A model generated the notes under the pieces. That model saw nothing but the letters and a program-made list of their open reading frames with translations, was not told the DNA's origin and searched no databases. Shown in pieces: positions 41,698-58,393 of a DNA stretch of 64,000 bases. The translations under genes and the position numbers were made by a program. The DNA comes from Bacilli bacterium (GTDB lineage Bacteria > Bacillota_I > Bacilli_A > RF39 > UBA660): contig JAFUBO010000003.1 of NCBI GenBank assembly GCA_017460175.1, forward strand, positions 17,150-81,149. Reading direction: 5' to 3'. The stretch's first letter is position 1. Every line of letters starts with the position of its first letter.

Positions 41698-43815
41698 GTG
41701 ATACTTGTGAGAGATAATATTATAAATGTTCTAAAAAATTCAACTAAAGCTATTGATATTTATGAACTACAAGATTTACTTAATATTAAGAGTATTGAAG
41801 AAACTAAAATATTAAGTGAAGAACTTAGAAAATTAGAAGATGAAGTAATTATATATAGATCAAATAAAAATAAGTATATGATGCTTGAAGATAGTCATTT
41901 AAAAAAAGGAATAATGAGAGTTAATAAAAAGGGATTTGGTTTTGTAGAAGTAGATAGTTTAGATGACGATATATATATATCTTCTGATAATATGAATGGA
42001 GCTATACATGATGATATTGTTCTTGTAGAAATTACAAGTAAAATGAATTTAGATAGATTAGAAGGAAGAGTACTTAAAATAATAGAAAGAAGAATACAAA
42101 GATATATAGGACTTATTAATTTTGATAAAAAAGGTATAGGACATATTACTTTGGATGATAATAAGATTAAACTAGATATTGAAGTAAACAAAGATAATAG
42201 TTTAAATTCTGTAGATGGACATAAAGTAGTTGTTGAACTTATAAAAAAAATAAACAATAATGGTAAATATGAAGGTAAAGTAGTAGAAATATTAGGACAT
42301 GTTAATGATCCAGGAGTAGATATTTTATCTATTATTTATAAATATAATATTAATATTGATTTTCCAGATGATGTTAAAGAAGAAGTATCTAAAATACCAA
42401 TGGAAGTTAGAGATGTTGATTTAAAAGGTAGAAGAGATCTTAGAGATATATGTATTTTTACTATAGATGGTGATGATACTAAAGATATAGATGATGCTAT
42501 TTCAATAGAAAAACTTCCTAATGGTAATTATAAATTAGGTGTACACATTGCAGATGTTTCTTATTATGTTAAAGAAGGAAGTCCATTAGATAATGAAGCA
42601 ATGGATAGAGGAACTAGTGTATATCTAGTAGATAGAGTTATTCCAATGCTTCCACATGAACTTTCTAATGGAATATGTTCATTGAATCCTAATGTAGATA
42701 GATTAGCTATTTCATGTGTAATGGAATTTAATGATAAAGGTAAACAATTAAATTATGAGATATTTCCAAGTATAATTAAATCTCGTATACAAATGACCTA
42801 TAAAAATGTTAATAAAATATTAGAAAAAAATGAAAAAGTAGAAGGTTATGAAGAATTTGTTGATGACTTAAAACTAATGGAAGAACTTGCGAAAATATTA
42901 AGAAAAGCTAAAATAAATAGAGGATATATTGATTTTGGAATAGATGAAGCAAAAATATTAGTTGATGAAAAGTGTGTTCCTTATGATGTAGTACTAAGAG
43001 ATAGAGGAGTAGGAGAAAATTTAATAGAAGATTTTATGATTGCAGCTAATGAATGTGTTGCGACTCATATTTATTTTATGAATTTACCATTTATTTATAG
43101 AATTCATGAGTATCCAAAAGAAGAAAAAATTAGAAGTTTTTTAGGATTTGTTTCTAATTTAGGTTATCATATTACAGGTAATATAAATGATATGAAACCT
43201 ACCACAATACAAAGAATACTTAAACAATTAGAAGATAAACCTGAATATAAGATACTTTCTTCCTTATTACTTAGAAGTATGCAAAAAGCTATTTATAGTC
43301 CTGAAAATTTAGGACATTATGGATTAGCTAGTAGTTGTTATACACATTTTACATCACCAATAAGAAGATATCCAGATACAACAGTACATAGATTACTAAG
43401 GACATATTTATTTGATTCTAAAATAGATATGCAAACAATTCATAAATGGGAAGAAAAACTAGTATATATTTCTGAACATTCTTCAGAAAAAGAAAGAAAT
43501 TCAGTTGATTGTGAAAGAGAAGTAGATGATATGAAGATGGCAGAATATATGGAAAAACATATAGGTGAAGAATTTGAAGGTATGATATCATCTGTTACTT
43601 CATTTGGTATGTTTGTAGAATTACCTAATTTAATAGAAGGTTTAGTTCCAATTAAAGATATGCCTGATTTTTTCCATTTTGATGAAGAAAGAATGACTTT
43701 AACTGGAGAAAGAACTCATGTAAGATATTCAATAGGTGATAAGGTAGTAATAAAAGTAATTAGAGCTTCAAAAGAGGATAAAACAATAGATTTTGAGATA
43801 GTAAAGAAGGTGTAG
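41698..43815 (+). CDS. rnr: ribonuclease R
   Basis: RNB catalytic region ('IDGDDTKDIDDAISIE', 'HIADVSYYV', 'TSPIRRYPD') and C-terminal S1 domain. 705 aa. Confidence 0.8.
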   Translation: MILVRDNIINVLKNSTKAIDIYELQDLLNIKSIEETKILSEELRKLEDEVIIYRSNKNKYMMLEDSHLKKGIMRVNKKGFGFVEVDSLDDDIYISSDNMNGAIHDDIVLVEITSKMNLDRLEGRVLKIIERRIQRYIGLINFDKKGIGHITLDDNKIKLDIEVNKDNSLNSVDGHKVVVELIKKINNNGKYEGKVVEILGHVNDPGVDILSIIYKYNINIDFPDDVKEEVSKIPMEVRDVDLKGRRDLRDICIFTIDGDDTKDIDDAISIEKLPNGNYKLGVHIADVSYYVKEGSPLDNEAMDRGTSVYLVDRVIPMLPHELSNGICSLNPNVDRLAISCVMEFNDKGKQLNYEIFPSIIKSRIQMTYKNVNKILEKNEKVEGYEEFVDDLKLMEELAKILRKAKINRGYIDFGIDEAKILVDEKCVPYDVVLRDRGVGENLIEDFMIAANECVATHIYFMNLPFIYRIHEYPKEEKIRSFLGFVSNLGYHITGNINDMKPTTIQRILKQLEDKPEYKILSSLLLRSMQKAIYSPENLGHYGLASSCYTHFTSPIRRYPDTTVHRLLRTYLFDSKIDMQTIHKWEEKLVYISEHSSEKERNSVDCEREVDDMKMAEYMEKHIGEEFEGMISSVTSFGMFVELPNLIEGLVPIKDMPDFFHFDEERMTLTGERTHVRYSIGDKVVIKVIRASKEDKTIDFEIVKKV

Positions 43816-43816
43816 T

Positions 43817-45001
43817 ATGGGAAAAAAGAAGGTTAAATTAAAGAAAAAAATTAGGTTAATAGTAATAGTTTTACTAATTATTGTGTTAGGTATTTTTGCA
43901 CTAGATTATTTTGATGTATCTTCATATTTTACTAAGAAAGAAGAAGAAAAAAAGAAAAAAGTAGAAGTAAAAGTACCACAAGAATATGAAGCAAGTTTAT
44001 TTATGGTAGGAGATGCCTTGATTCACAGTTGTGTATATAATGATGCAAAGACTAGTGATGGTGGATATGATTTTAAACCTCAAATAGAGTTAATTAAACC
44101 AATAGCTTCTAAGTATGATTTAGCATATTATAATCAAGAAACTGTGTTGGGTGGTACAGAACTTGGACTTTCTAATTATCCGAGATTTAATTCACCATAT
44201 GAAGTAGGAGATGCATTTATAGATGCAGGGTTTAATTTAGTTTCTTTAGCTACTAACCATACTATGGATAAAGGAGAAGCTGGAGTTACTAATTCAGTTA
44301 ACTATTGGAAAAAACAAAAAAACGTTGTTACTTCAGGACAATGGTTAAGTGAAGATGAAAGAGAAGAAAGTGTAACTAAGATTCATGAAATAAATGGAAT
44401 TACATATGCATTTTTATCATATACTACGTGGACTAATGGATTAGAAACTCCATATGGAAAAAGTTATTTAAATAATGTTTATTCAGATGAAAAAGCAAAA
44501 GCTGATATTGAAAAAATTAAAGATAAAGTAGATATTATTATAGCTGCAATGCATTGGGGAACTGAATATTATTTAGGTGTAGATAGTGATCAAACACGAA
44601 TTGCTAATTTCTTAGCTAGTCAAGGGGTTCAATTAATTATTGGTGCTCATCCACATGTTGTAGAACCAGTTGAATATATTAATGATGGTAAGACATTTGT
44701 TATTTATTCATTAGGTAATATAATTTCAGATCAAGAAGGTAATGAAAGACTTACAGGACTTATGATGGGACTTGATATAAAGAAAAAGGTTGATGTAGAT
44801 GATTCAGTTACTATAAGTATTGAGAATCCAAGAGCTGAACTTTCTTATACTAAGTCTGGTTATTGTAAAAACTTTAAAGTATATCCTTATTCACAATTAA
44901 ATACAAGTATTCTTTATAATTATGAATCATTAAGAGATAAATACCAAGGAATTGTAAGTCAAAGATATCCTGACTTAAAATGGGGACTTGCAGGTGAATA
45001 A
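43817..45001 (+). CDS. CapA/PgsA-family metallophosphoesterase (poly-gamma-glutamate capsule synthesis protein-like), membrane-anchored
   Basis: N-terminal TM. 'AMHWGTEYY', 'IIGAHPHVVEP' are the CapA (PGA_cap) motifs. Inserted between rnr and smpB. Confidence 0.55.
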   Translation: MGKKKVKLKKKIRLIVIVLLIIVLGIFALDYFDVSSYFTKKEEEKKKKVEVKVPQEYEASLFMVGDALIHSCVYNDAKTSDGGYDFKPQIELIKPIASKYDLAYYNQETVLGGTELGLSNYPRFNSPYEVGDAFIDAGFNLVSLATNHTMDKGEAGVTNSVNYWKKQKNVVTSGQWLSEDEREESVTKIHEINGITYAFLSYTTWTNGLETPYGKSYLNNVYSDEKAKADIEKIKDKVDIIIAAMHWGTEYYLGVDSDQTRIANFLASQGVQLIIGAHPHVVEPVEYINDGKTFVIYSLGNIISDQEGNERLTGLMMGLDIKKKVDVDDSVTISIENPRAELSYTKSGYCKNFKVYPYSQLNTSILYNYESLRDKYQGIVSQRYPDLKWGLAGE

Positions 45002-45002
45002 T

Positions 45003-45440
45003 ATGGAAATATTAAACAAAAGAGCTAAATTCGATTATTTTATAGAAGAAGAATATGAAGCTGGAATAGAACTTACTGGTACAGAAGTTAAGTCAATAAG
45101 AGAAGGTAAATGCAATATTAAAGATTCTTATGGAATAGTAAGAAACGGGGAAGTATTTCTTCTTAATATGTATATCGCAGAATATAAAGAAGGTAATATA
45201 TTTAATCATGAAGAGTCTCGCAGTAGAAAATTATTATTACATAAAAAAGAAATAAAAAAAATAAATGATGCTATTACTTTGAATGGTTTAACTTTAGTTC
45301 CTTTAAAAGGTTATTTTAAAAATAATAAATTTAAAATACTATTAGGAATATGTCGTGGTAAAAAGAATTATGATAAGAGAGAGACTATAAAAGAAAGAGA
45401 TATTAATAGAGAAGTAAAAAAGAACTTAAAGAATTATTAA
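45003..45440 (+). CDS. smpB: SsrA-binding protein SmpB
   Basis: 'NKRAKFDYFIEEEYEAGIELTGTEVKSIR'. RBS 'aggtga' precedes ATG 45003. Confidence 0.85.
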   Translation: MEILNKRAKFDYFIEEEYEAGIELTGTEVKSIREGKCNIKDSYGIVRNGEVFLLNMYIAEYKEGNIFNHEESRSRKLLLHKKEIKKINDAITLNGLTLVPLKGYFKNNKFKILLGICRGKKNYDKRETIKERDINREVKKNLKNY

Positions 45441-45508
45441 GTTCTTTTCTCTTTATTTTTAAGTAAAAATATGATATAATGTATGCACATGGAATACCAT
45501 GGGTATAT

Positions 45509-45887
45509 GGGGCTGACTTGGTTTCGACGGGAATAATAGAGCATAGATGGCAAGTCGAATGTCCACGTCACGGGCACAAAAAAATAAATGCTAAAAGTAT
45601 TAAAAACGTTGTAGCTAATATGTTTGGTACTCGCCAAGCTGTAGCTTTTGCCTAATAATAATATAAAGGCCAACACTTCTTATAATCTTACCTAGGGATT
45701 ATTAAGAGGTTCATTTTATAGGTTATATCTATTTATTGTCTAGTAAATAGAAAGAATATTTAGACTGGTATATCTACTTGGTCGTTAATTACTTGGTAGG
45801 TATATAAGAACAATTAGTTAACTAAACTTGTAGAGGTTTATGTAGCTTTATTTTCGGACAGGAGTTCAATTCTCCTCAGCTCCACCA
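45509..45887 (+). ncRNA. ssrA: tmRNA (ssrA)
   Basis: 5' 'ggggctgacttggtttcgacggg'. 3' tRNA-like end 'ggacaggagttcaattctcctcagctccacca'. Internal tag ORF '...AKSIKNVVANMFGTRQAVAFA**' (gct aaa agt ... gcc taa taa). Directly downstream of smpB. Confidence 0.8.
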
Positions 45888-45900
45888 TAATGAAATTATT

Positions 45901-45925
45901 CGAACTAAGTTAGTTCGTTTTTTTA
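45901..45925 (+). terminator. intrinsic terminator after ssrA
   Basis: 'cgaactaa-g-ttagttcg' followed by T7. Confidence 0.6.
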
Positions 45926-45960
45926 TTTTATGGTATTATATATATGAATGGAGGAATATA

Positions 45961-46770
45961 ATGATTACTACAAAGAAAGATACCCAAATAGCTTTAGAAT
46001 TTTTAAATGGTAATCATTCTAAATACATTGGAGATAATTATAATTATATTTATAATTCTACTAATGAAAATTTAGATTCATATTATAAATATTTTCCTAT
46101 TAAAGATAAAAATATTTTAACTATTGCGAGTAGTGGAGATCATATATTAGAAGCAATATTAAATAGTTCTAAAGAAATAGTATGTTTTGATAAGAATATT
46201 TTTTCGTTATATATGTCAAAGTTAAAAATAGAATCTTTAAAAGTATTAAATTACGATGAATTTATTAATTTTTTTTATTCATCAAATTTTTTTAATAAAA
46301 AAGATTATTCTAAAATAAGAGAATGTTTAGATGAAAATATTAAATATTTTTGGGATAAATTGTATATAAAAGGTAATTTAGAAAATAATATAGGTAGACT
46401 ATTTTTAACTAATAGTTATGAATACTATGGAATTTATTGTGATGAAGATAAATTTGGTAAAATTAAAGAAAATAGTAATATTCCTATTACTTATAAACAT
46501 ACTAATTTTTTTGATTTACATAAAGTATTAAAATCGAGTGATAAGTTTTCATCAATTTTTTTATCTAATATACCAGATTGGTTAGATACTAAGAGTAGAA
46601 ATATTTATTACTATAATTACATTAAAAATGTTTTATCAAAATATTTAGATGATGATGGTATGATTGCGATTTATGCAGGAGTACAAGGTTCCAGACAATT
46701 AGAATTAGAAGAAAAAAGTAGTCAAATTATAGATGCAAATGAAAAAACAAAAGTATATGTTTATAGATAA
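45961..46770 (+). CDS. hypothetical protein, DUF3419/BtaA-like SAM-binding fold (putative)
   Basis: 269 aa. 'ILTIASSGDHILEAILNSSKEIVCFDKNIFSLYMSKLKIESLKVLNYDEFINFF' resembles the DUF3419 motif block (SaGdN.L..L..p..v.avD.N..Q.aLLeLK..a...L.y.ef...F). Confidence 0.3.
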   Translation: MITTKKDTQIALEFLNGNHSKYIGDNYNYIYNSTNENLDSYYKYFPIKDKNILTIASSGDHILEAILNSSKEIVCFDKNIFSLYMSKLKIESLKVLNYDEFINFFYSSNFFNKKDYSKIRECLDENIKYFWDKLYIKGNLENNIGRLFLTNSYEYYGIYCDEDKFGKIKENSNIPITYKHTNFFDLHKVLKSSDKFSSIFLSNIPDWLDTKSRNIYYYNYIKNVLSKYLDDDGMIAIYAGVQGSRQLELEEKSSQIIDANEKTKVYVYR

Positions 46771-46802
46771 TAAAAAAATCTGCAAACTAGACAATTATAT
46801 TC

Positions 46803-46830
46803 TTGACAAAGAAAATAAATAAAGTATAAT
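46803..46830 (+). promoter_or_regulatory. consensus sigma-A promoter of TasA-like subunit gene
   Basis: TTGACA-16 nt-TATAAT, followed by very strong RBS 'aggaggagg' 8 nt before ATG 46855. Confidence 0.55.
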
Positions 46831-46854
46831 TTATAATAGGAGGAGGAAAGAAAG

Positions 46855-47451
46855 ATGAAAAACGAAAAACAAAAGAATATAGTGTTAGCTGTATTATTAG
46901 TAGCAGTTGTTACATTAACTATTGCTTATGCATTATTAAGTGCAACATTAACTATTAATGCACAAGCTACAGTTAAAGGAGCTAATTGGGATGTTCATTT
47001 CCAAGAAAAAAGTGATCAATCTGCAATCTGTGTAGCATCTTCAAAAACTGGAGCTGCAACAACTACTGCAGAAGTTAAAACACAACCAACTGTTAGTAAT
47101 ACAAGTTTTACTGGTTTAGCAGCTGATCTTAAATTACCTGGTGATAAAGTAGTTTGTACATGGCAAGTAACTAATGCAGGTTCAATCGATGCTAAATTAG
47201 CTACTTATACTGCACCAGCTTTAACTTACGCTGGAGATAGTGCTGACGTTACTAAAGTAACAGGTAAAATTAACACTACTTTAACTGTTGATGGTGCTAC
47301 ACCAGCAAATGGTGATGTATTACCAGCAACTACTGGTAACACTAAAGATGTAGTATTAACTATCGAATTTGATCCAAATGCTACAGAATTACCATCTCAA
47401 GATGTAACAGTAACAGTAGCAAGTGAAACATTTGTATACGAACAAAATTAA
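46855..47451 (+). CDS. TasA/camelysin (peptidase M73)-family secreted fibre-subunit-like protein with SipW-cognate-type signal peptide
   Basis: Signal peptide 'KNIVLAVLLVAVVTLTIAYALLSATLTINA'. Motifs 'SNTSFTGLAADL' (compare camelysin 'SNNTFAAGTLDL') and 'LKLPGDKVVCTWQVTNAGSIDAKL' (compare TasA 'LKPGDKLTKDFQFENNGSLAIKEV', CalY 'LKPGDSVKKEFLLQNSGSLTIKDV'). T/A/G/V-rich, translationally optimal codons. Confidence 0.5.
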   Translation: MKNEKQKNIVLAVLLVAVVTLTIAYALLSATLTINAQATVKGANWDVHFQEKSDQSAICVASSKTGAATTTAEVKTQPTVSNTSFTGLAADLKLPGDKVVCTWQVTNAGSIDAKLATYTAPALTYAGDSADVTKVTGKINTTLTVDGATPANGDVLPATTGNTKDVVLTIEFDPNATELPSQDVTVTVASETFVYEQN

Positions 47452-47470
47452 TTTAAAAAGAATATGTTAA

Positions 47471-47500
47471 TCCAGGATGCTTAGCATACTGGATTTTCTT
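47471..47500 (+). terminator. imperfect hairpin plus T-rich tract between subunit gene and peptidase gene (possible attenuator / partial terminator)
   Basis: 'ccaggatgcttagcatactgg' near-palindrome followed by 'attttctt'. Confidence 0.3.
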
Positions 47501-47518
47501 GGTAAAGGGAGTGAAAAA

Positions 47519-48646
47519 GTGAAAACTAGTCATAAAAAGGCACTAGCTATACTTATGTTTATAGCTTTAGTTAGTATTGTTAACTTTTTCTTTCCCTTTA
47601 TACTTGATAGTAATAGGCATTTAATATTACTTGGGTTAGTCCTTGTTATATTATATTTATTACTAGGTATTGATATTAAGGGAAAGTCTAATAATAGACT
47701 TATAATAAGAGATATTCTTATTTATATAACTTTTTATTACCTATTAATATATTTATTAGGATTATTAACAGGATTTGTAAGAACAATTTATAGTTATACA
47801 ATATCAAATCTAGTAATAAATATAATTCCAAGTATATTGACAATATTTGGAGTTGAGTTAATTCGTAATCAATTAATTAATAAAACTAATAAGAAAAAAA
47901 TTATAGTAGTATTATCTTGTATAGTATTTATATTATTTGAAATAAGTATTAATTTTCAATATTATAATCTTACTATAAAAGATGAAATATATTTATTTAT
48001 AGGATTACTTGTAGCTTCAAGTATATCTAAAAATATACTAATGACAGTAATAGCTATGAAAACAGATTATTTACCTGCGGTAGTATATAGGCTATTAATT
48101 GAAACATTAGATTTTGTAGTATTAATTCAACCTGATTTGGGTCCATATTTAAATTCAGTAGTAGCAATAATGTTACCAATATTAACTGCGATAATGCTTA
48201 TAAATATGGGCAAGAAAGTTAAAGATACACCTGAGAAAGTAAAGAAAGGTAGTAAATTTTATATAGTTTTAGTTATTATTTTATCTATATTAGTTTTACT
48301 TAATTCAGGATTGTTAAAATTTCAAACTTTAGTAATAGGTTCACAATCAATGCTTCCTATGATAGATAAAGGTGATGTGGTTTTGATTGAAAGATTAAAT
48401 AAAGAAGAGAAAGATAAAGTAAAATTAGGAGAAATTCTAGTATATAGATATGATAATAAGATAATTTGTCATAGGGTAGTTAAAGTATCAAAACGAGATA
48501 ATGGTACTTTCTATAAGACAAAAGGTGATAATAATGACCAAGATGATAAAATTGTTCTTTCTAGGAAAGAAGTTATGGGGAAGGTAATATATAGAATTAA
48601 ATATATTGGTCTACCAAGTGTATGGTTAAATGAATTATTTAATTAG
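47519..48646 (+). CDS. polytopic membrane domain fused to C-terminal SipW-type signal peptidase I domain
   Basis: Likely GTG start at 47519 after RBS 'agggag' (the ORF track's ATG 47477 lacks an RBS). About 280 aa with 8 or more TM segments, then 'LVIGSQSMLPMIDKGDVVLIERL' (Ser box), 'ICHRVVKV' (His), 'KTKGDNNDQDD' box. This is the same motif set as the SipW at 747-1352. Confidence 0.55.
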   Translation: MKTSHKKALAILMFIALVSIVNFFFPFILDSNRHLILLGLVLVILYLLLGIDIKGKSNNRLIIRDILIYITFYYLLIYLLGLLTGFVRTIYSYTISNLVINIIPSILTIFGVELIRNQLINKTNKKKIIVVLSCIVFILFEISINFQYYNLTIKDEIYLFIGLLVASSISKNILMTVIAMKTDYLPAVVYRLLIETLDFVVLIQPDLGPYLNSVVAIMLPILTAIMLINMGKKVKDTPEKVKKGSKFYIVLVIILSILVLLNSGLLKFQTLVIGSQSMLPMIDKGDVVLIERLNKEEKDKVKLGEILVYRYDNKIICHRVVKVSKRDNGTFYKTKGDNNDQDDKIVLSRKEVMGKVIYRIKYIGLPSVWLNELFN

Positions 48647-48658
48647 AGGTGATATAAA

Positions 48659-49663
48659 ATGAAATTGAAAAAGAAAGAGTTAATATTATTAATAGCAACT
48701 ATAGTATTTACAGTAGCAGGATTGGTGTTTTACTATGAATCTAAAAATATAGTAACTACATCGTTAATACCATATGATGAACAAGGAACAGCTAACTATA
48801 AAGTTCATTTAAGTGATAATACATATTATAATAAAGATTACTTAGATGAAGGAATGCAATATATATCTAGTATTATTGATTATGTTGATTTGGATTTTAG
48901 ATATATTGCTAATTACCAAGGTATAAAGAATTATAAGGTAGATAAAAATATAGTTGCTAATATAAAAATTACTGATTTAGATGATAATAATAAAGTAATT
49001 TATACAAAGACAGAGACATTAAAAGAAGAACATGCTGATTTAGATAAATTATCAATTAATGATTCTATAAAGATTGATTATGTTAAGTATAATGACTTAG
49101 TAAATGAAATAAAAAGTAAATATGCAATAAGTGCTAAATCTACTTTAAGTGTTTCATATAATATTATTTATTCTTCTGAAGAAGAAGGTTTAAGTACAGC
49201 TAAAAAGATGGTTGTAGATATACCTTTATCTGAGCAAATGATTAATATTACTAAGGAAAATATTGCTAGAAATAGTGATGTTTATGTTGGCAAATCTACA
49301 AATTCACCAATAAATGGTATTATGTCATTACTTATGATATTAATGTTTATATTTGCACTTGCTAGTTTAATATTCTTTATTATGAGAGTAAAAGATAGAA
49401 TTAGTAAAGAAAGTAAATATGATAGATTTATTAATAAAGTATTAAGAGAGTATGATTCTTATATTACTGAAACTAAAGAAGATAATTATATTACTGGAAA
49501 ATCTGTAATAGAAATAGGTAGTTTTAAGGAATTATTAGATGTAAGAAACAATATTGATAAGACTATTGTTTATACAAAAATTGATGATAATACAAGTAAA
49601 TTTCAAATTATTGATGAAGAAGTTTATGAGTATGTAGCTAAAAGAGAAGAAATGGATAAATAA
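48659..49663 (+). CDS. bitopic membrane protein (N-in signal anchor, about 190-aa extracytoplasmic domain, second TM, cytoplasmic tail)
   Basis: TM1 'LILLIATIVFTVAGLVFYY', TM2 'IMSLLMILMFIFALASLIFFIM'. Translationally coupled to the peptidase fusion. No known motif. Possible TapA-like accessory or anchor. Confidence 0.3.
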   Translation: MKLKKKELILLIATIVFTVAGLVFYYESKNIVTTSLIPYDEQGTANYKVHLSDNTYYNKDYLDEGMQYISSIIDYVDLDFRYIANYQGIKNYKVDKNIVANIKITDLDDNNKVIYTKTETLKEEHADLDKLSINDSIKIDYVKYNDLVNEIKSKYAISAKSTLSVSYNIIYSSEEEGLSTAKKMVVDIPLSEQMINITKENIARNSDVYVGKSTNSPINGIMSLLMILMFIFALASLIFFIMRVKDRISKESKYDRFINKVLREYDSYITETKEDNYITGKSVIEIGSFKELLDVRNNIDKTIVYTKIDDNTSKFQIIDEEVYEYVAKREEMDK

Positions 49664-49788
49664 TTCATTTCTTTTATTGATAATTATTAAAAATATAAAG
49701 ATAATCTTTATATTTTTATTATGTTTTAATACGTAATAAATTGGTTAGAATAATATTATAAATAAAATTAAAAAAAACAAGTAAAAAC

Positions 49789-49817
49789 ATTGAAAAAAAA
49801 GTCGAAATTTGGTATCA
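49789..49817 (+). promoter_or_regulatory. sigma-A promoter with extended -10 upstream of giant surface protein gene
   Basis: TTGAAA-17 nt-TGgTATCAT, followed by RBS 'gaaggaggtg' 7 nt before ATG 49857. Confidence 0.45.
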
Positions 49818-49856
49818 TTAATAATAGGGTAGTGTCATAGAAGGAGGTGCTAGAAA

Positions 49857-52800
49857 ATGCGTAAAAAAATATTGTTATTACTTAGCATGTTTTTAATTAT
49901 GATTACAACATATGCATATTCAGCACTATCAACTTCTTTGGCAATAACTTCGGAGGTAAATATTAGACCATTAGCTGATATAAGAGTTAATGGAATAGCA
50001 TTAGATAGTACTCATGATTCTACTGTTAAATATGAAAGTACTTATTCAAGAAGTATAATATCTAGTGGTTTTGTATTACCAAATGCAGGATCAAGCATTA
50101 GTTATAGAGTTCATATAGATAATACAGGTGATGTGGATTACTGTATTTATGGTATTTCTACAAATACTACTAGTACAGGTTTAAATGTAGATACAGGAAG
50201 TTATAACTTACAAGATATAATACCTGCTAAAAGTTCTTTAGATTTAATAATAACTTATACTACATCTAATCCAAGTAGTGAACCAATAAATGTAATGAAT
50301 CAATTTGATTTTAGAAAAGTATTCCATGTAAGTTATAACACTGGAACTTCTCAAACAATACCTGAACAAATTAAATACGAAAGAGTGGATTTAACTTTAA
50401 CAAATACAAAACCTACTAAGCCTGGTAATACATTTAGTAGATGGAATACTAAGAGTGATGGAACAGGAGTTAATTATAATAGCGGAGCTACTTATACAGT
50501 GGATGAAGATGTAATATTATATGCACAATATACATTACAAACTTATAATATCACTTATGTGCTTGATGGTGGAACTAATAGTTCTAATAACCCAAGTACT
50601 TATACAACAAATTCAAATGATATTATATTAGATGATGCTAGTAAGACAGGATATGATTTTCAAGGATGGACTGGTAATGGTACTACGACACCAACAAAAA
50701 ATTTAGTATTACCAACTGGTTCTACAGGAGATAAGACATTTACTGCACACTTTAGTGATGTTACAGATCCAACAGTTACTGTAAAAGATCAAACAGGTAC
50801 TATAGATTATTTAACAACTGCTTATAATGTAGATGCAGCATGGGATGCTACTAGTGCAACTCCTACTGTATATATTAATGCAGAAGATACAGGTAGTGGT
50901 GTTAAGAAAATAGAATATGTATATAGTAATAGCACTACAGTACCTACAACTGGATGGACTGAAACAACTAATGGAGCTTTAAGTCAAGTAAAAGAACGTG
51001 GTAGTTATTATTTACATGTAAGAGTAACAGATAATGAAGATAATGTAACTACAGTAACAACTAAACCAATAACAGTAAGATTTAGAGTAGCTTATTATGA
51101 CGATTATAGTAAGAGTACAACTATATCAGAAAATCAATATTATACAGGAACAGCACTAACTTCTAGAACACCAACAGCAGTTACTGGTTATACATTTGAT
51201 GGTTGGTATAGTGATACAGCATTAACTCATAAAGTTGTTAATGCCAACACAAGTTATACACCAACTGCTTCAACAAAATTATATGGTAAATGGACATCTA
51301 CAAATTACACAATAAGTTATGCAATGAATAATGGACAAAATAATGAAAATAATCCAACAAATTATAATAGTGAAAGTGAAGCAATAACATTACAAGCACC
51401 AACTAAGACATTGATATTTAAAGGAAATTATAATGCAACAAGTGGAGCAAATGCTTCAAGCGGTAGTGGTGTAGCTATTGGATCTAATACAACAGCAAAT
51501 CAAACATTTACAGGTTGGACAGGAAGCAATGGAAATACTCCACAAACTACTGTAACAATACCAGCAGGTTCAACTGGAGATAAAGAATATACAGCACATT
51601 GGAGTGCAGTTGCACCTAATAAGTTACCAAAGGTAGAGAGAACAGGATATAGATGTGGATGGAATACAAGTAATAGTGGAACAACAATAGAGTATGCAAG
51701 TGAAGCTACAAATTATCCAACAAGTGCAATAAGTGAAGGTCAATCATCAACAGTTAATTTATATGCGGTATGTATACCAAACACATATAATATTTCATAT
51801 ACAATGAATGGTGGAACTAATCCAAGTACAAAACCAACAACTGCAACATATGATAGTGATGTTAATATAAGTAATCCAACAAAGATATTTACAGTTAATT
51901 TAGATGCAAATAATCAAGAGGCTGATATTAAAATTCAAGGTGGATATGATGTAATAAGTGTAAGTCAATCACAAACATTTGCAGGATGGAGTAGTACTAC
52001 AATAGGAAGTAATGCTAAGAGTGGTACAAGTACTAAACCAAGTGGAGCTTGGGATGGTAGTGCTACTACTAATAGTCATTTTATGAATTTAGTAGAATCT
52101 GGAACAGTAACAATGCTAGCAAACTGGACACCAGTAGATATTACTTTACCAAATGTTACTAAGACAGGATATTCATGTAAATTTAATACAAGTTCTAATG
52201 GAACAGGTACAGATTATGCAAGTGGAGCAACATATTCACCAAGTGCTACAGCAAATAGTGATACATTATATGCAATTTGTAGTCCAAATTCTTATACAGT
52301 AACTGCAAATGCAAATGGTGGAGATATACCTTCTACATCAGGTTGGACAGGAACAGGTGGAAGTTCTACTAAGTCAATAGTATTTGATACAAATTACGGG
52401 ACACTTCCAACTCCGACTAAAACTAGTTATACATTTGATGGTTGGTATAGAAATATAGTAAAAGCAGTAGATTTTAAAGATGCTACAGGTATTAATTCCG
52501 ATACAGGTGAACCAATTCATGCATCAAATTATTTTGCAACACCTAACTTAGTACCTATAAAATCTGGAATTACATTATATTCTAATTTAGAAATATGTGG
52601 AATATATTCATATGATTCAAATGGTGACTTTATAAAGAGAGAATCTAATTATTCTACAACTCATTCAATTTCAGCTAATGCTGCTTATATAAGAATTGAA
52701 GTTAAAAAGCAAGAAGGAGATATGAATTATTACTTAAATAATTTAGTAATAAGTGAATATCAAAATGCAGCTGATATAACTGATATAAGTAGTCAATTAA

Positions 52801-55800
52801 CAAGTTCAACAGTTTTAAAAATAGCTGTTGATCATAGTATTTTTGCTAAGTGGAGTATTAATAATATATCAACACCAGCAATAAGTGGTGGAACTACTAA
52901 AATATATGGTTCAAGTGATACAACTTTAACTTGTTCAGAAAATACAAGCTATGGACAAGGTATAACTAAATATTATTCATTTGGTTACGCTACAACTAAT
53001 GATGGTACACCAAGTAATTGGACTGAACCATCTACTTCAAATACATTTACTGTTGCAGAAAATGAATATGTAGGACAAAGATGGTATTCATGTAGAGTAT
53101 ATGCAACTGATGGTGTACAAACTACTTCAATAGTAGCAAGTTCACCATCAGCAGATACAGAACTAACAATAAATAATGCAAAAATTGTTTATAATCCTAA
53201 TGATTGTGGAACAATAAGTGGAACAAATCCTGCTTATGTTAAGAAAGGATCAACTGGAGTATACACTGGTATAAGAAATACTACAGCAGGAACAATAGCA
53301 ACTGCAACTCAAAGCGGATATACATTTACAGGATGGTATGATGGAACAACAAAAGTAATTAATGCAGATGGAACGATAGTTCCAAGTGCAGGTAATTGGA
53401 CAGATTCTTCTAGAAATTGGTTAATTACTGAAGATAAAACATTAGCTGCTCATTGCAGCGGTAATTCATTTACTATTGATTATGCAATGAACAATGGTCA
53501 AAATAATGCAAGTAATCCAACAAATTATAATATTACTGATACACCTATAACTTTAGGTCAACCAACAAAGACATTAACATTTATTGGACATACTAATTCA
53601 ACTAGTGGTGCTTATGGTACTGGAGTAACTATTGGATCTAATACAACAGCAAATCAAACATTTACAGGTTGGACAGGAAGTAATGGAAACACTCCACAAA
53701 CTAGTGTTACAATTACTGAGGAAACAGCTGGTAATAAGAATTATACAGCTCACTGGAGTGCAGTAGCTCCTGATACATTACCAACAGTAACAAGAAAGGG
53801 TTATACTTGCGGATGGAGTACAAGTAATAGTGGAACTACTATTGAATATGCAAGTGGTGCTACAAATTATCCAACGTCTTTGATTACAGAAGATATGAGT
53901 GCTACAGTTAACTTATATGCTGTATGTACTCCAAATATCTATTCAATAACATTAGATAATCAAGGTGCTGATACACCAGGAACTACAAAAGTTTATTATC
54001 AATATAATCAAACAAAAACTATTGATGGTACTAAGTGTTATTATTATTTAGATAGAGAATTAACTCAGTGTTTAAGAGGTGGATATTATATTGATAAACC
54101 TGCAAAAACAGGAAATACATTTGGAGGATATTATTCAAAAGTAAATGGTGCAGGAACAAGATATGTTACAACTTCTGCTGGATTTACTAATAGTATTTAT
54201 CAAAAAGCTCCTATTGATATAGATAGTAGTTATACAGATACAGATAATATTCCTTTATATGCTAAATGGACTCCTTATGCGTATAATATTTCTTATACGT
54301 TGAATGGTGGAAATGATCCAAGTCCAAAACCAACAAAAGGAAATTATGGTAGTGATGTAGTTATTGGTAATCCAACAAAGACATTTACAATTAACATTAA
54401 TGCAAATAGTCAAGGTGCAACAATAAGTTCAAATACTGTTACAAAGTCAATAACATTTGCAGGATGGAATAGTACAACTATTTCTGATACAGCAAAAACT
54501 GGTACAAGTGCTGATCCAACTACAACATGGGATGGTAGTGCTACTACTAATACATACTTTAAAAATTTAAGAAATACAAATGGAGCAACTGCTACAATGA
54601 TTGCTAATTGGGCACCTACGGATATAACATTACCAACTATTGAAAAAACTGGTTATACATGTGGATTTGCTACAAGTAGTAGTGGATCAATAGCATATGA
54701 AAGTGGTGGTACATATACATCTACAAGTGCATCAAGTGTAACTTTATATGCAAAATGTACTAAGGAAAATTATACAATTACTTATAGTATGAATAATGGT
54801 ACAAATAATAGTAATCCAACTAGTTATAATGTTGAAAGTAGTGCTATTACATTAGCAGCACCAACTAAGACATTAACATTTGTAGGACATTCTAATTCAA
54901 CAAGTGGAGCTGAAGGAACTGCTGTATCTATTGGATCTAATACAACACAGGATCAAACATTTGCAGGTTGGACAGGAAGTAATGGAAATACTCCACAAAC
55001 TGCTGTAACAATAGCGACAGGTTCAACTGGAAATAAAGAATATACTGCTCACTGGACAGGAGTAGCGGCAACACTTCCTACTGTAACTAAAAAAGGATAT
55101 ACATGTGGATGGAGTACAAGTAGTAGTGGAACTACTATCGAATATGAAAGCGGTGGAACATTCCCAGTAAGTGCTATTACTGAGGATATGTCTACTACAG
55201 TAAATTTATATGCTGTATGTACAAGAAATAAGATAAAATTAACATTAGATCATGATGGTGGTACATCATCAACACAATACATGTGGTATTATTATGGTAT
55301 TAATACATTCTATTCAGATGAGACATGTACAAATATAATAACTTCTGTACCAGTACCAATTAAAACAGGTTATTCATTCTCTAGGTATGTAGCTGATGGT
55401 ACTAGTGGTGGATCTTCAGGAGAACGTTATATTTATAGTGATGGTACTTTTGCATCCGATTTATCTAGTGATATATGGAAGGATGCGACATTAACTGCAG
55501 AATGGAGTGCTAGATCTTATAGTATTTCATACACAATGAATGGTGGAGTTAATCCAGATCCTAGACCAACTAGTGCTACATATGATAATGCTGTAGAAAT
55601 TGGTACAACAGCACAAACAACAAAAACATTTACAGTTAATATTAATGCAAATAGCCAAGGAGCAACATTAAGTGATACTAGTTCAAGTGCAGCATTAACA
55701 TTTACAGGATGGAATAGTTCTACACTTGGTTCTACTGCATTAACTAGTAGTGATGGAACTACATATACAGCTTGGGATGGTACTTTAACGACAAATAAAT

Positions 55801-57626
55801 ACTTTAAGAATTTAAGAGAATCTGGAACAGCAACATTGATTGCTAACTGGACAGGTTCTGTACCATTACCAACTATTGAAAAAACTGGATATGTATGTAA
55901 ATTTAATACAAATTCACATGGTACTGGAACTGATTATGAAAGTGGAGGAATTTATACTCCAACTAATGGAACAGCTACAAGTACTACATTGTATGCTATT
56001 TGTAGTAAAGATGTTTATACAATTAGTTATGCAATGAATAATGGACAAAATAATCCTAATAATCCAACAACTTATAGTGTTGATGATAGTGATATTACAT
56101 TACAAGCACCAACTAAAACACTAATATTTAAAGGAAACTATAATGCAACAAGTGGGGCCAATGGTACATCTACTTATATAAACAGTATAGGTACTGATAC
56201 AACAGCAGATCAAACATTTGCTGGATGGACAGGAAGTAATGGAAATACTCCACAAACTAGTGTTACAATACTAACAGGTTCAACTGGAAATAAAGAATAT
56301 ACAGCACACTGGACAGGAGTAGCTGGAACAGTACCAACAATAACTCCAAAGACTAATTATATTTGTGGATGGAGTACAAGTAATAGTGGAACTACAATTG
56401 AGATAGCAAGTGGTGGAAGTTATGATGTTAGTAGAATAACTGAAGACATGAGTTCAACAGTTAACTTATATGCCGTATGTAGAAAAAAAGCATATAGTAT
56501 TAAATTTAATGCTAACGGTGGAACTGGAACTATGACAAATCAATCAATGACATTTGGAACTGTTGCTACATTAAAACAAAATGCATTCACAAGGTCAGGT
56601 TATGAATTTGTAGGATGGACTCGTAATAGTGATGGTACTGGAGTTATTTACACTGATTTTAATGGTAGAGCAGCAGCTTATTATGATCAAGAACAAATAA
56701 TGAGGGATTTGACTGAAACAGATGGTGATATAGTTAACTTATATGCACAGTGGAGAAAAACTAGTGGAGAAATTATATATAATGCTAATGGTGGAGCAGG
56801 AACAATGGCAAATCAAACAATCCCATTAGATGGATCATCTATTAATTTAACAGGAAATGCTTATTCTACTTCTCCAGGATATATATTTAATAAATGGAAC
56901 ACTAAAAGTGATGGAACAGGTTACAGTTATTCTAACGGTGCTTCTATGACAATTATGCCTAATATGTTTATAAATACTTCTAATCCATCATTACCAACTT
57001 CTACAATTTCTTATGCTTTAGCTGGTCAATGGGGTAAAACTTCAGATGAGCTTACTCCGTCATTAATATCAGTAAATAATAGCGGATTGCCTGTTAATAA
57101 AGCTTTTGTAATACCTCAAAATACAACTTCTAAACCATATTATTTATACTTAAATTATATGCTTACAGAAGTTGAGGAATATTATATTATAAGTATATAT
57201 GCGAAAGGTTCTGGTAATTTAATAATTAAAGCTGAAGCAGAGGGAAGTAGTACTAATGGTAAAACAAGTAGTTTTACATTGACAAATGATTGGCAAAGGT
57301 ATGAAATGAAGATTTATCCTACAAGGAGTATTAGAACGTCGGATAATGATGATGATGTATATGTTAATATCCATAAACAATTTAATGTTTACTTTGGTAC
57401 AGAATCTGGAAATGGTGAAGTTCAAATAGCAGGAGCTAAAATGGAAAAAGGATCTACTCATGCAACTGAATATATTGATTCTAATGCACAAATAAACTTA
57501 TATGCTCAATGGAGTAGAGTAATGGCTGAAAATATTTATTATGAACCTAAGTATGCTCCAAGTACTTGCCATGATGTTCAATGTACATTAGATTATATAG
57601 ATAGTATACTTAATGGTAATAGTTAA
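49857..57626 (+). CDS. giant (2589 aa) secreted surface protein: TasA-like N-terminal domain, at least 20 Listeria-Bacteroides (Flg_new) repeats, C-terminal beta-sandwich (CBM-like) domain, no LPXTG
   Basis: Signal/donor-like N-terminus 'ILLLLSMFLIMITTYAYSALSTSLAITS'. 'VLPNAGSSISYRVHIDNTGDVDY' is a TasA-like motif. Recurrent 'Y.I.Y..NGG....(GY.F.GW).....LYA.W' repeat units (for example 'YSIKFNANGGTGTMTNQ...SGYEFVGWTRNSDGTG...VNLYAQW'). Confidence 0.7.
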   Translation: MRKKILLLLSMFLIMITTYAYSALSTSLAITSEVNIRPLADIRVNGIALDSTHDSTVKYESTYSRSIISSGFVLPNAGSSISYRVHIDNTGDVDYCIYGISTNTTSTGLNVDTGSYNLQDIIPAKSSLDLIITYTTSNPSSEPINVMNQFDFRKVFHVSYNTGTSQTIPEQIKYERVDLTLTNTKPTKPGNTFSRWNTKSDGTGVNYNSGATYTVDEDVILYAQYTLQTYNITYVLDGGTNSSNNPSTYTTNSNDIILDDASKTGYDFQGWTGNGTTTPTKNLVLPTGSTGDKTFTAHFSDVTDPTVTVKDQTGTIDYLTTAYNVDAAWDATSATPTVYINAEDTGSGVKKIEYVYSNSTTVPTTGWTETTNGALSQVKERGSYYLHVRVTDNEDNVTTVTTKPITVRFRVAYYDDYSKSTTISENQYYTGTALTSRTPTAVTGYTFDGWYSDTALTHKVVNANTSYTPTASTKLYGKWTSTNYTISYAMNNGQNNENNPTNYNSESEAITLQAPTKTLIFKGNYNATSGANASSGSGVAIGSNTTANQTFTGWTGSNGNTPQTTVTIPAGSTGDKEYTAHWSAVAPNKLPKVERTGYRCGWNTSNSGTTIEYASEATNYPTSAISEGQSSTVNLYAVCIPNTYNISYTMNGGTNPSTKPTTATYDSDVNISNPTKIFTVNLDANNQEADIKIQGGYDVISVSQSQTFAGWSSTTIGSNAKSGTSTKPSGAWDGSATTNSHFMNLVESGTVTMLANWTPVDITLPNVTKTGYSCKFNTSSNGTGTDYASGATYSPSATANSDTLYAICSPNSYTVTANANGGDIPSTSGWTGTGGSSTKSIVFDTNYGTLPTPTKTSYTFDGWYRNIVKAVDFKDATGINSDTGEPIHASNYFATPNLVPIKSGITLYSNLEICGIYSYDSNGDFIKRESNYSTTHSISANAAYIRIEVKKQEGDMNYYLNNLVISEYQNAADITDISSQLTSSTVLKIAVDHSIFAKWSINNISTPAISGGTTKIYGSSDTTLTCSENTSYGQGITKYYSFGYATTNDGTPSNWTEPSTSNTFTVAENEYVGQRWYSCRVYATDGVQTTSIVASSPSADTELTINNAKIVYNPNDCGTISGTNPAYVKKGSTGVYTGIRNTTAGTIATATQSGYTFTGWYDGTTKVINADGTIVPSAGNWTDSSRNWLITEDKTLAAHCSGNSFTIDYAMNNGQNNASNPTNYNITDTPITLGQPTKTLTFIGHTNSTSGAYGTGVTIGSNTTANQTFTGWTGSNGNTPQTSVTITEETAGNKNYTAHWSAVAPDTLPTVTRKGYTCGWSTSNSGTTIEYASGATNYPTSLITEDMSATVNLYAVCTPNIYSITLDNQGADTPGTTKVYYQYNQTKTIDGTKCYYYLDRELTQCLRGGYYIDKPAKTGNTFGGYYSKVNGAGTRYVTTSAGFTNSIYQKAPIDIDSSYTDTDNIPLYAKWTPYAYNISYTLNGGNDPSPKPTKGNYGSDVVIGNPTKTFTININANSQGATISSNTVTKSITFAGWNSTTISDTAKTGTSADPTTTWDGSATTNTYFKNLRNTNGATATMIANWAPTDITLPTIEKTGYTCGFATSSSGSIAYESGGTYTSTSASSVTLYAKCTKENYTITYSMNNGTNNSNPTSYNVESSAITLAAPTKTLTFVGHSNSTSGAEGTAVSIGSNTTQDQTFAGWTGSNGNTPQTAVTIATGSTGNKEYTAHWTGVAATLPTVTKKGYTCGWSTSSSGTTIEYESGGTFPVSAITEDMSTTVNLYAVCTRNKIKLTLDHDGGTSSTQYMWYYYGINTFYSDETCTNIITSVPVPIKTGYSFSRYVADGTSGGSSGERYIYSDGTFASDLSSDIWKDATLTAEWSARSYSISYTMNGGVNPDPRPTSATYDNAVEIGTTAQTTKTFTVNINANSQGATLSDTSSSAALTFTGWNSSTLGSTALTSSDGTTYTAWDGTLTTNKYFKNLRESGTATLIANWTGSVPLPTIEKTGYVCKFNTNSHGTGTDYESGGIYTPTNGTATSTTLYAICSKDVYTISYAMNNGQNNPNNPTTYSVDDSDITLQAPTKTLIFKGNYNATSGANGTSTYINSIGTDTTADQTFAGWTGSNGNTPQTSVTILTGSTGNKEYTAHWTGVAGTVPTITPKTNYICGWSTSNSGTTIEIASGGSYDVSRITEDMSSTVNLYAVCRKKAYSIKFNANGGTGTMTNQSMTFGTVATLKQNAFTRSGYEFVGWTRNSDGTGVIYTDFNGRAAAYYDQEQIMRDLTETDGDIVNLYAQWRKTSGEIIYNANGGAGTMANQTIPLDGSSINLTGNAYSTSPGYIFNKWNTKSDGTGYSYSNGASMTIMPNMFINTSNPSLPTSTISYALAGQWGKTSDELTPSLISVNNSGLPVNKAFVIPQNTTSKPYYLYLNYMLTEVEEYYIISIYAKGSGNLIIKAEAEGSSTNGKTSSFTLTNDWQRYEMKIYPTRSIRTSDNDDDVYVNIHKQFNVYFGTESGNGEVQIAGAKMEKGSTHATEYIDSNAQINLYAQWSRVMAENIYYEPKYAPSTCHDVQCTLDYIDSILNGNS
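51305..51780 (+). repeat. intragenic about 480-nt repeat, family A copy 1 (other copies at about 53470-53940, 54770-55220, 56015-56480)
   Basis: Long identical runs shared between copies, for example 'caaacatttacaggttggacaggaag.aatggaaa.actccacaaact' and 'agttatgcaatgaataatggacaaaataat'. Confidence 0.6.
51785..52280 (+). repeat. intragenic about 500-nt repeat, family B copy 1 (other copies at about 54285-54780 and 55515-56010)
   Basis: Encodes 'Y.ISYTMNGG.NP...PT...Y...V.IGNPTK.FT.N..AN.Q.A......FAGW.S.T......T.....W.G..TTN..F.NL......T...ANW.P.DITLP...KTGY.C.F.T...G'. Shared DNA strings between copies. Confidence 0.55.
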
Positions 57627-57645
57627 TCTATATGAATAAGATATA

Positions 57646-57674
57646 AAAACAGCATAATATATGCTGTTTTTATT
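57646..57674 (+). terminator. intrinsic terminator of giant gene
   Basis: 'aaaacagcat-aatat-atgctgtttt' followed by 'tatt'. Confidence 0.55.
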
Positions 57675-57699
57675 GTGTTTGTGTTTTATTAATACAAAA

Positions 57700-57725
57700 T
57701 AAAATCAGTCTTGAGACTGATTTAT
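57700..57725 (-). terminator. intrinsic terminator for minus-strand paralog cluster
   Basis: 'aatcagtc-ttga-gactgatt', which is followed by a T-rich tract on the minus strand. Confidence 0.45.
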
Positions 57726-57749
57726 TATAGTTATTCATTTAATTTAATT

Positions 57750-58385: not shown

Positions 58386-58393
58386 ATTATCAC

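Follow-up and report, generated by a model that had tools for sequence, protein, structure and literature searches.

An operon at positions 46803..57673 (+ strand) of the window, the whole 64-kb stretch of DNA (G+C 28%) from a Bacilli metagenome-assembled genome (MAG) that was analysed here, probably encodes a surface fibre built by donor-strand complementation from TasA-superfamily subunits, with a giant adhesin plugged onto it, likely at a terminal position. Its genes, all on the + strand, are in order a 198-aa open reading frame (ORF; the small subunit), an ORF listed with 389 aa (a signal peptidase), a 334-aa ORF (a DUF5305 protein) and a 2589-aa ORF (the giant). A first-pass annotation of the same DNA had proposed that the small and the giant protein share a TasA-like N-terminal module through which the giant could be built into a fibre. 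The features that bear on this proposal are:

46855..47451, + strand: predicted major fibre subunit, 198 aa, mature ~17.8 kDa, TasA superfamily, AbpX-like
46855..46932, + strand: leader of the small subunit (aa 1-26) with a K-rich n-region, a hydrophobic core at 9-23 and the c-region A24-Y25-A26, from hydropathy
46933..46974, + strand: predicted donor strand of the small subunit (aa 27-40), LLSATLTINAQATV, from AbpX alignment, conservation and disorder in the monomer model
47128..47199, + strand: block LKLPGDKVVCTWQVTNAGSIDAKL (aa 92-115), the PGD...N.G.. strand pair of the superfamily, from family conservation and alignment to AbpX and TasA
47519..48646, + strand: polytopic signal peptidase I, 375 aa, start codon GTG 47519, with ~9 membrane segments and a C-terminal extracytoplasmic catalytic domain of endoplasmic reticulum (ER)/SipW type
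48659..49663, + strand: DUF5305 protein, 334 aa, putative accessory subunit of the peptidase, as suggested in published work (PF17231 E 1.9e-15; membrane helices 8-26 and 224-242)
49857..57626, + strand: giant subunit, 2589 aa, mature ~275 kDa, with an N-terminal pilin-like module, Flg_new repeats and a C-terminal region
49857..49922, + strand: leader of the giant (aa 1-22), with A20-Y21-S22 at its end and a predicted cut behind S22; all 13 homologues keep A20 and S22, and the register is that of the small subunit and AbpX
49923..49964, + strand: predicted donor strand of the giant (aa 23-36), ALSTSLAITSEVNI, which has L+2, S+3, L+6, I+8, a small residue at +10 and V/A at +12 in common with the small subunit
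49974..50324, + strand: beta-sandwich domain of the giant (aa 40-156), including VLPNAGSSISYRVHIDNTGDVDY (aa 73-95, nt 50073..50141)

The two proteins had been said to begin with very similar segments, which were located as LTIAYALLSATLTINAQATV (aa 21-40 of ORF 46855..47451) and ITTYAYSALSTSLAITSEVNI (aa 16-36 of ORF 49857..57626). Both sit after a K/R-rich start and, judged by hydropathy, a hydrophobic core of 15-19 residues. Ungapped pairing of AYALLSATLTI (small aa 24-34) with AYSALSTSLAI (giant aa 20-30) gives 7/11 identities. In the six frames of the window, the regular expression of the motif matches just these two ORFs, and the full motif is absent from the 13 other window ORFs with a hydrophobic N-terminus. 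Plain BLASTP of the small against the giant protein was not significant (E 0.45), and conservation must therefore serve as the test of similarity. Homologues of the small protein were aligned with it to a family of 26 sequences (25 homologues, 31-78% identical), and the giant N-domain was aligned with 12 homologues that are 40-67% identical to the window giant. Word-index searches with the giant N-domain had returned 5 and 13 relatives, mostly fragments; a DNA-level search of GTDB representatives built from 9 close sequences gave no confirmed relative. Across leader and strand, every member of the small family has A26 and L32 and at least 90% have I34, followed by a W45-x-V47-x-F49 segment with an invariant W45 and V47 and F49 at 90% or more. 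A20, S22, A23, L28, I30, E33, R37, D41, I42 and R43 are invariant in the giant family.

The two families were compared profile to profile with hhalign, which resulted in E-values of 3.7e-7 and 2e-8 with a probability of 93-95%. The alignment pairs the N-terminal motif and the blocks 'PGDKVVCTWQVTNAGSIDAKL' / 'AGSSISYRVHIDNTGDVDYCI' ('PGD...N.G..D'), as the first-pass annotation had drawn them. Leader and motif alone gave E 4e-7, the body downstream of the motif E 2.8e-4. The two N-terminal modules are truly similar, most strongly at the N-terminus but also beyond it, and with the motif conserved in the orthologues of each protein the similarity does not reflect generic Sec composition, which had been named as a possible objection. 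Position logos of 124 small-class and 17 giant-class sequences share -3 [A/G], -2 [Y/F], +2 [L/F], +3 S, +6 L and +8 I, and further along +10 [G/S], +12 [A/V] and +14 [V/F]. Most of the small-class sequences were gathered by motif pattern, and the count was redone, as a check for bias, on the best 147 representatives of an unbiased hidden Markov model (HMM) search. A relaxed motif was found in 135 of these 147, at a median position of 27; the carriers have A/G/V at -3, F or Y at -2 in all 135, and A at -1 in 93%. [A/G]-[Y/F]-[A/S] ↓ x-[L/F/M]-S-x-x-L-x-I, where ↓ marks the predicted cleavage, is usable as an annotation rule.

The shared segment is in register with the donor strand of AbpX. Cryo-EM assigned W2-I12 of mature AbpX as the donor strand; W2, L6, L8, A10 and I12 are buried in the groove of the neighbouring subunit, E4 binds calcium, and the first 16 residues are unstructured in monomer predictions (Sleutel et al., bioRxiv 10.64898/2026.01.04.697558). 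The precursor reads ...LALTAIGLTYA↓QWSETLSLSATISTGSLDVDI (supplement, bioRxiv 10.64898/2026.01.04.697558). When the small family was compared with this precursor by hhalign, 142 columns were aligned (P 2e-5), with IAYA↓LLSATLTI opposite LTYA↓QWSETLSL. With the giant family and the single AbpX sequence, just the 12-residue motif was aligned (E 0.1). Leader end, site and strand of the three proteins are:

AbpX: LTYA↓QWSETLSLSATI..LDVDI
small subunit: IAYA↓LLSATLTINAQATV..WDVHF
giant: YAYS↓ALSTSLAITSEVNI..ADIRV

The even strand positions are L/A/L/I/A/A/V in the small subunit (L28, A30, L32, I34, A36, A38, V40, a hydrophobic alternation) and L/T/L/I/S/V/I in the giant. The sole site that follows the -3/-1 rule next to the hydrophobic core lies after AYA26 and AYS22, respectively, and leaves 'xLSxxLxI...' at the mature N-terminus. 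Based on the register with the AbpX leader end and strand, AY[A/S] would be the c-region of the leader and the signal-peptidase site, to be removed on cleavage, and the remainder would start the mature protein as an amphipathic donor strand. The description of the shared segment as donor-like thus agrees with an experimentally visualised strand, and the concern that predicted cleavage might remove it is answered by the core-adjacent site, which keeps the shared strand in both mature proteins.

AlphaFold2 (AF2) modelled the small subunit from the 26-sequence alignment with a pLDDT of 87, as a helix (4-27) and a beta-sandwich (46-198), with residues 28-45 unstructured and of low confidence. A Foldseek search of this model against the PDB placed the TasA fibre 8AUR on top (E 7e-3). 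The Foldseek scores are modest, nearly all specific matches are donor-strand filaments, and chaperone-usher pilins are among the fold matches. The small-family profile searched against PDB sequences found AbpX best (E 4.4e-4 for 9SJ2, and 5.9e-3), with TasA at 0.15-0.29. Within the LKLPGDKVVCTWQVTNAGSIDAKL block, which aligns with AbpX 'YPGAE.NVNFTLENVGTIPA' and with TasA, G96, D97, N107, G109 and A113 are invariant and P95 is conserved in at least 90%. Judged by sequence, the small protein is a TasA-superfamily member that is closer to AbpX than to TasA, AbpA or CanA. Of the original description as TasA/camelysin-like, the fold part stands, since the fold is closest to TasA-superfamily donor-strand filaments; the family that is closest by sequence is AbpX instead. 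Searched against Pfam, the small subunit, the giant N-domain and five relatives gave sub-threshold matches and reached no family model. The small subunit scored 16.2 bits against NCBIfam TIGR04089, the alternate-type signal-peptide class (cut-off 60), and one relative matched PF12389 (Peptidase_M73) with E 0.006, below the cut-off of that model. Taken together, no Pfam-A or NCBIfam model was found at threshold for these window proteins and the five relatives, with two marginal generic-domain matches in single relatives. Membership in the TasA/camelysin family proper (PF12389, TIGR04088-04090) was rejected, as the curated thresholds were not reached. A hypothetical protein from an NCBI 'Bacilli bacterium' MAG matches the small protein with 100% identity. 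C59 and C101 of the small subunit are invariant among close homologues; mature recombinant AbpX is disulfide-bonded (bioRxiv 10.64898/2026.01.04.697558).

For residues 1-163 of the giant, AF2 with 12 sequences gave a pLDDT of 78.6, with a helix at 2-27 and an eight-strand sandwich at 42-155. Residues 28-38 have a pLDDT below 50, and the layout is like that of the small subunit. Fold matches of this model were to generic beta-sandwiches only. Beyond this module the giant carries Flg_new repeats (E 1e-32), a weak OmpL47-like segment and a weak C-terminal CBM_4_9 match (E 0.012). It has no C-terminal LPXTG, and hydropathy shows no membrane segment besides the N-terminal one. Giant orthologues measure 2589, 2759 and 6456 aa, a more than two-fold spread among close relatives, which indicates that the Flg_new repeat array expands and contracts rapidly.

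SipW had been named as the enzyme that releases the TasA strand, and a SipW/archaeal-type signal peptidase is encoded between the small and the giant gene. It scores 82 bits against TIGR02228, the archaeal/ER-type signal peptidase I (cut-off 51.9), and has the motifs SQSM...CHRV...GDNN, in which the Ser of SQSM and the His of CHRV replace the bacterial Ser/Lys pair. The listed start, ATG 47477 (389 aa), was rejected: it lies inside a hairpin, and the orthologues of the loci L001 and L002 start at VKTSHKK, which corresponds to GTG 47519. This GTG has AAGGGAG upstream. From the orthologue starts and the overlap with the hairpin, we take the peptidase to be 375 aa long, not 389. The AbpX-associated signal peptidases stand out by their ten membrane helices, AbpX loci commonly come with a DUF5305 accessory protein and AbpX-like minor subunits, and predicted tip proteins of such loci co-assemble with the major subunit by donor-strand complementation in AlphaFold 3 (AF3) models (bioRxiv 10.64898/2026.01.04.697558). 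The locus of the haloarchaeal Tafi fibre also has a DUF5305 gene; when its peptidase is deleted, the subunits stay unprocessed and fibres do not form.

The arrangement recurs in other genomes. The cassette small subunit-peptidase-DUF5305-giant is kept in L001, where the giant has 6456 aa, and in L002/L003, with two small subunits and a giant of 2759 aa. The same cassette was found in L107 and L109, starting from giant-type N-domains. The more distant L004 and L007 have small subunit(s), peptidase and DUF5305 but no giant. GTDB species-representative genomes were also scanned with a degenerate DNA pattern for [A/G][Y/F]A-x-L-S-x-TLTING (~40 bits), and the loci were examined as 8-kb stretches. 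The pattern found 99 loci, with ~1 chance match expected from the information content. Almost all pattern matches (104/105) lie 5-45 residues from the N-terminus, nearly all after a hydrophobic segment. A polytopic peptidase is present in 31 of the 99 loci, 26 of which also contain DUF5305. Five loci (L022, L073, L075, L085, L086) encode a large protein whose N-terminus matches the giant-type HMM, with the pattern [G/A]YSAL..L.IS.E..FR...DIR. Such a protein lies directly 3' of DUF5305 in L022, L073 and L086 (truncated in L086) and among small-subunit genes in L085; there is no peptidase within the L075 locus. A large protein directly 3' of DUF5305 in L069 and L081 matches the small-subunit HMM only.

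An exhaustive HMM search returned 8,728 cluster representatives (50% identity) at E<=1e-3 and 5,378 at E<=1e-10. About one sixth of the best 147 representatives are 260-1000 aa long, nearly all with the pilin module at the N-terminus, and the module was found fused to cargo such as BspA-type leucine-rich repeats (P0144, P0147, P0078) or a GDSL lipase/esterase (P0094). The cassette recurs with varied C-terminal cargo in many gut Bacilli and Clostridia MAGs. This suggests that the pilin module is a general display handle, beyond its use in a fibre subunit alone, and the giant is one case of a recurrent design of pilin-type plug and cargo.

Further observations were made on this family. An unassigned cargo domain of ~230 aa recurs in several MAGs (L082 4921.., L010/L016/L050). 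Single MAGs carry many paralogues over many contigs, at least 12 in one of them (CASEKZ01: L021, L025, L031, L032, L037, L044, L050, L059, L080); MGBC119771 and HGM10829 are also rich in paralogues. One paralogue group, to which that of the window does not belong, has the full AbpX hallmark GYA↓LFSDTLTING with an aromatic residue at +2 and an acid at +4. Some matches lie in MAGs labelled Muribaculaceae, Prevotellaceae, Saccharibacteria or Paratractidigestivibacter, which could be due to mis-binning or transfer. In L108 (8001..8405), a giant-type N-domain remnant of 134 aa with a Gly-rich tail, seen on 13 contigs, stands beside sporulation genes and away from the cassette; it is probably a decayed or recombined copy.

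Signals for transcription and translation of the operon were read from the sequence:

46803..46830, + strand: sigma-70-type promoter of the small-subunit gene, TTGACA-16-TATAAT, 12/12 consensus and the sole such match in 45400..58500 (~13 kb)
46838..46846, + strand: ribosome-binding site (RBS) AGGAGGAGG, 8 nt 5' of the ATG, read from the sequence
47469..47501, + strand: hairpin with U-tract, candidate attenuating terminator between the small-subunit and peptidase genes (RNA fold -15.2 kcal/mol, z -2.1)
49790..49848, + strand: promoter-like site of the giant gene, TTGAAA-17-TATCAT with an extended -10 (upstream TG), and RBS GAAGGAGGTG, assigned by consensus match only
57643..57673, + strand: bidirectional terminator closing the operon, 14-bp stem and T run

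The RBS of the giant gene was read as GAAGGAGG. Codon usage was compared with that of tuf, fusA, rpsL and rpoC of the window, identified from gene size and order: rpoB/rpoC-sized genes and an rpsL-rpsG-fusA-tuf-sized block lie at 24.7-36.6 kb. In the small gene the fraction of C-ending two-fold codons is 0.26 and that of ATA among Ile codons 0.14. The reference genes have 0.21-0.45 and 0.04-0.19, and the neighbours of the small gene 0.03-0.08 and 0.45-0.62, respectively. High expression of the small gene, as predicted earlier, is supported by the 12/12 promoter, the RBS and the tuf-like codon usage. Attenuation by the hairpin at 47469..47501, which a simple terminator scan did not call, is plausible but weakly supported.

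These data suggest the following course of assembly. The consensus promoter, the strong RBS and the translationally optimal codons of its gene would make the small protein abundant, and the hairpin that follows the gene probably lowers read-through. Small subunit and giant would be exported via Sec and held in the membrane by the N-terminal signal-anchor until the peptidase, probably together with the DUF5305 protein, cuts after [A/G]-[Y/F]-[A/S], that is, after A26 of the small subunit and S22 of the giant. The new N-terminus (LLSATLTINAQATV or ALSTSLAITSEVNI) would then insert into the open groove of the next subunit and link the subunits head to tail. We infer that small subunits polymerise in this manner and that the giant donates its strand to a small subunit, which would attach it to the fibre non-covalently but very stably. 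It is the common cleavage site, the same groove-facing strand residues and a homologous, though smaller, sandwich that argue for the giant joining the fibre, and being rarer and having no other anchor it would most likely be terminal. A strand donor sits at the groove end of the chain. The giant would thus be the first-assembled subunit at the distal tip if the fibre grows by addition of subunits at the membrane, and it would there present ~2,400 residues of Flg_new repeats with a possible carbohydrate-binding domain at the end.

A part of these observations could be explained without incorporation of the giant into a fibre. If the motif were only the recognition and cleavage signal of the dedicated peptidase, the giant might be an independent surface adhesin outside the fibre. 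Many genomes have numerous proteins that share this N-terminus, some with enzyme cargo, three neighbouring ORFs have just the G-Y-[A/S] site, and both the class-specific strand residues of the giants and the generic fold matches of the giant N-domain fit such a signal. However, conservation reaches at least 14 residues past the site, with the periodicity of a beta-strand and a match to the AbpX donor strand, which exceeds the needs of a peptidase. The giant has also retained the homologous sandwich domain, once cleaved it would have no LPXTG, membrane helix or wall-binding domain for retention at the cell, and the tip proteins in published AF3 models of other AbpX loci join the fibre. We regard a mere processing signal as unlikely. 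Less probable still, and improbable overall, are uncleaved signal anchors, with the small protein as an abundant type II coat, the giant as a membrane-rooted adhesin and the motif as a membrane-proximal interaction segment. The long hydrophobic cores (15-19 residues) and the AF2 helix, which is continuous through residue 27 in both proteins, would agree with this; but residues -3 and -1 are invariantly small and -2 is aromatic, like in AbpX (...LTYA↓QW), the two genes enclose one for a dedicated signal peptidase, which also accompanies the family, and the homologous AbpX and TasA work as cleaved, polymerised proteins. That the motif arose by chance or from generic Sec-signal composition in an AT-rich genome, for which the BLASTP E of 0.45 might speak, is refuted by its limitation to two window ORFs, its invariance in orthologues, profile E-values of 1e-7 to 1e-8, and the 99 GTDB loci against ~1 expected with 104/105 matches at the N-terminus; we give it hardly any credence.

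Several points weigh against the fibre with a plugged-on giant. The insertion of the giant's strand into a small subunit is itself something that we infer. Profile similarity of the bodies alone is modest, with a probability of 41% at the E-value given above. E+11, R+15 and D-I-R at +19 to +21 are invariant in the giant class only and are lacking in the small class, so that, from sequence alone, one strand could not simply stand in for the other. Another small-x-small site, A36-Q37-A38 (in relatives G-[TS]-A), follows 12 residues further on, and cleavage there would remove the shared strand; this AQA38 site is distant from the membrane core and has no correspondence to the AbpX N-terminus. The cleavage site of AbpX is itself a PrediSi prediction (bioRxiv 10.64898/2026.01.04.697558). 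Finally, no cell-proximal anchor of the fibre was found.

Two other types of pilus were considered and rejected. A sortase pilus would not fit, as neither protein has a C-terminal LPXTG/membrane helix and no sortase is found among the ORFs of 40000..64000. A type IV pilin was rejected because there is no class III signal of the G↓FTLIE type and the cleavage motif stands after, not before, the hydrophobic core.

A more general idea goes further than the fibre of this operon and is possible but doubtful: the N-terminal unit of leader, strand and sandwich could be a general plug that grafts interchangeable cargo onto one abundant fibre in gut Firmicutes. Cleave-and-insert assembly by peptidase and DUF5305 would then be a third pilus pathway of Gram-positive bacteria besides sortase and type IV. 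The newest, uncleaved subunit would serve as the anchor, its cleavage would pass the strand to the next incoming subunit, and a cargo subunit loaded first would come to lie at the distal tip. If true, gut microbiomes would commonly contain this pathway, with thousands of clusters at 50% identity, although Pfam and NCBIfam have no model for it. Should the fibre model proposed above hold, a very large uncurated family, with many paralogues per gut MAG, would encode a pilus that needs neither chaperone nor sortase and has modular adhesin or enzyme tips. That model would also give uncultured gut Bacilli and Clostridia a mechanism for attaching giant repeat adhesins that have no known anchor, and would extend the donor-strand paradigm of TasA and AbpX from the biofilm matrix to adhesin presentation. 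The family merits a Pfam/NCBIfam model.

Downstream of the operon and convergent to the giant gene are three paralogous ORFs on the - strand, 57750..58385, 58394..59035 and 59055..59576 (211, 213 and 173 aa). Their N-termini are K-rich and continue into a membrane helix that ends in G-Y-[A/S] (SIGYA↓ATIYF, TVGYA↓TLYDY, RLGYS↓ASSS). The -3/-2/-1 pattern is like that of the fibre subunits and AbpX, and neither the LS..L.I strand nor the PGD block is present. All share a C-terminal 'TGYR...YYLCG[YF]Q.S....GR[LM]YA..[IV]K' domain. No significant Pfam match was obtained for them, and hhalign paired them with the small family over just 10 residues at the site of cleavage. The polytopic peptidase may process them as further substrates. 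Upstream, a DUF3419 gene (45961..46770, E 7e-17) was rejected as a part of the system, as it is not conserved and relatives have Bro-N or a second small subunit in its place; it is probably unrelated to the fibre.

Loci of this general kind have already been described. AbpX-like loci are known in archaea, Bacillota and Chloroflexota (bioRxiv 10.64898/2026.01.04.697558), and those of Bacillota, with polytopic peptidase, DUF5305 and predicted tip proteins, are part of that January 2026 preprint. New here are the giant Flg_new tip-type subunit with its subclass motif, the size and paralogue richness of the gut family, and its absence from curated libraries. Of the solved structures, AbpX of Pyrodictium abyssi (PDB 9SJ2, 9RHP; Sleutel et al., bioRxiv 10.64898/2026.01.04.697558) matches best in sequence. 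It shares the leader end and strand register Y-A↓x-[W/F/L]-S-x-T-L-x-[L/I], a locus that holds a polytopic signal peptidase I, DUF5305, a large tip protein bearing a pilin-like module and, in relatives, minor subunits, and an acidic mature subunit (pI 4.4 in the window, ~4 in AbpX). However, D+E is 10.5% in the window and ~15% in AbpX. The small subunit has L28 instead of an aromatic residue at mature +2 and A30 instead of an acid at +4; at these positions the giant carries L24 and T26. Among the best 147 representatives, ~12% are aromatic at +2 and 7% acidic at +4. D46 is aligned to D18 of the calcium site, but this position is D/N/K/S/E within the window family. The missing +2/+4 hallmarks and the unconserved calcium ligands point to a sister branch, and from sequence we would place the system in the TasA superfamily as an AbpX-like, presumably calcium-independent branch. 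It also differs from AbpX in its tip-type protein, a Flg_new repeat adhesin of 2589 aa (6456 aa in L001), and in its host, an animal-gut Bacilli MAG and not a hyperthermophile, and its locus has neither an LPXTG nor an SLH anchor gene.

The TasA/TapA/SipW system of B. subtilis (PDB 8AUR; Böhning et al. 2022, PMC9674648) likewise combines a beta-sandwich subunit, whose N-terminal donor strand completes the next subunit, with an operon-encoded ER-type peptidase. Subunit n of a TasA or AbpX fibre passes its strand to subunit n+1 (PMC9674648; bioRxiv 10.64898/2026.01.04.697558). TapA is the direct precedent for the giant: with its N-terminus it imitates the TasA donor strand, and it presumably supplies the first strand (PMC9674648). 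The N-terminus of the giant mimics the strand of the major subunit in a similar way, a likeness of working only and not a sequence-based membership. On the other hand, the window proteins have no significant Peptidase_M73 match, the peptidase has ~9 membrane segments instead of 2, DUF5305 is present, and the accessory protein is not small like TapA but a 275-kDa adhesin with a pilin-like domain of its own. Among the archaeal fibres, Tafi (haloarchaeal, 9P0A) resembles the system in the dedicated signal peptidase, DUF5305, minor subunits and putative adhesin of its loci, but its subunits use the Tat pathway. Tafi, the Saci_0406 threads (Sulfolobus, 7PNB) and the AbpA bundling pili (Pyrobaculum, 7UEG) share only 10-14% sequence identity with the system, and none has a giant Flg_new subunit. 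In chaperone-usher pili, FimH and PapG also use a pilin-type domain to fix an adhesive module at the end of a donor-strand fibre, a resemblance for which no homology is demonstrable by sequence. The window locus, in an organism of Gram-positive type, has no chaperone or usher, and the modules come in the opposite order, the pilin module being N-terminal. FimH and PapG are strand acceptors only; the giant would donate its own strand.

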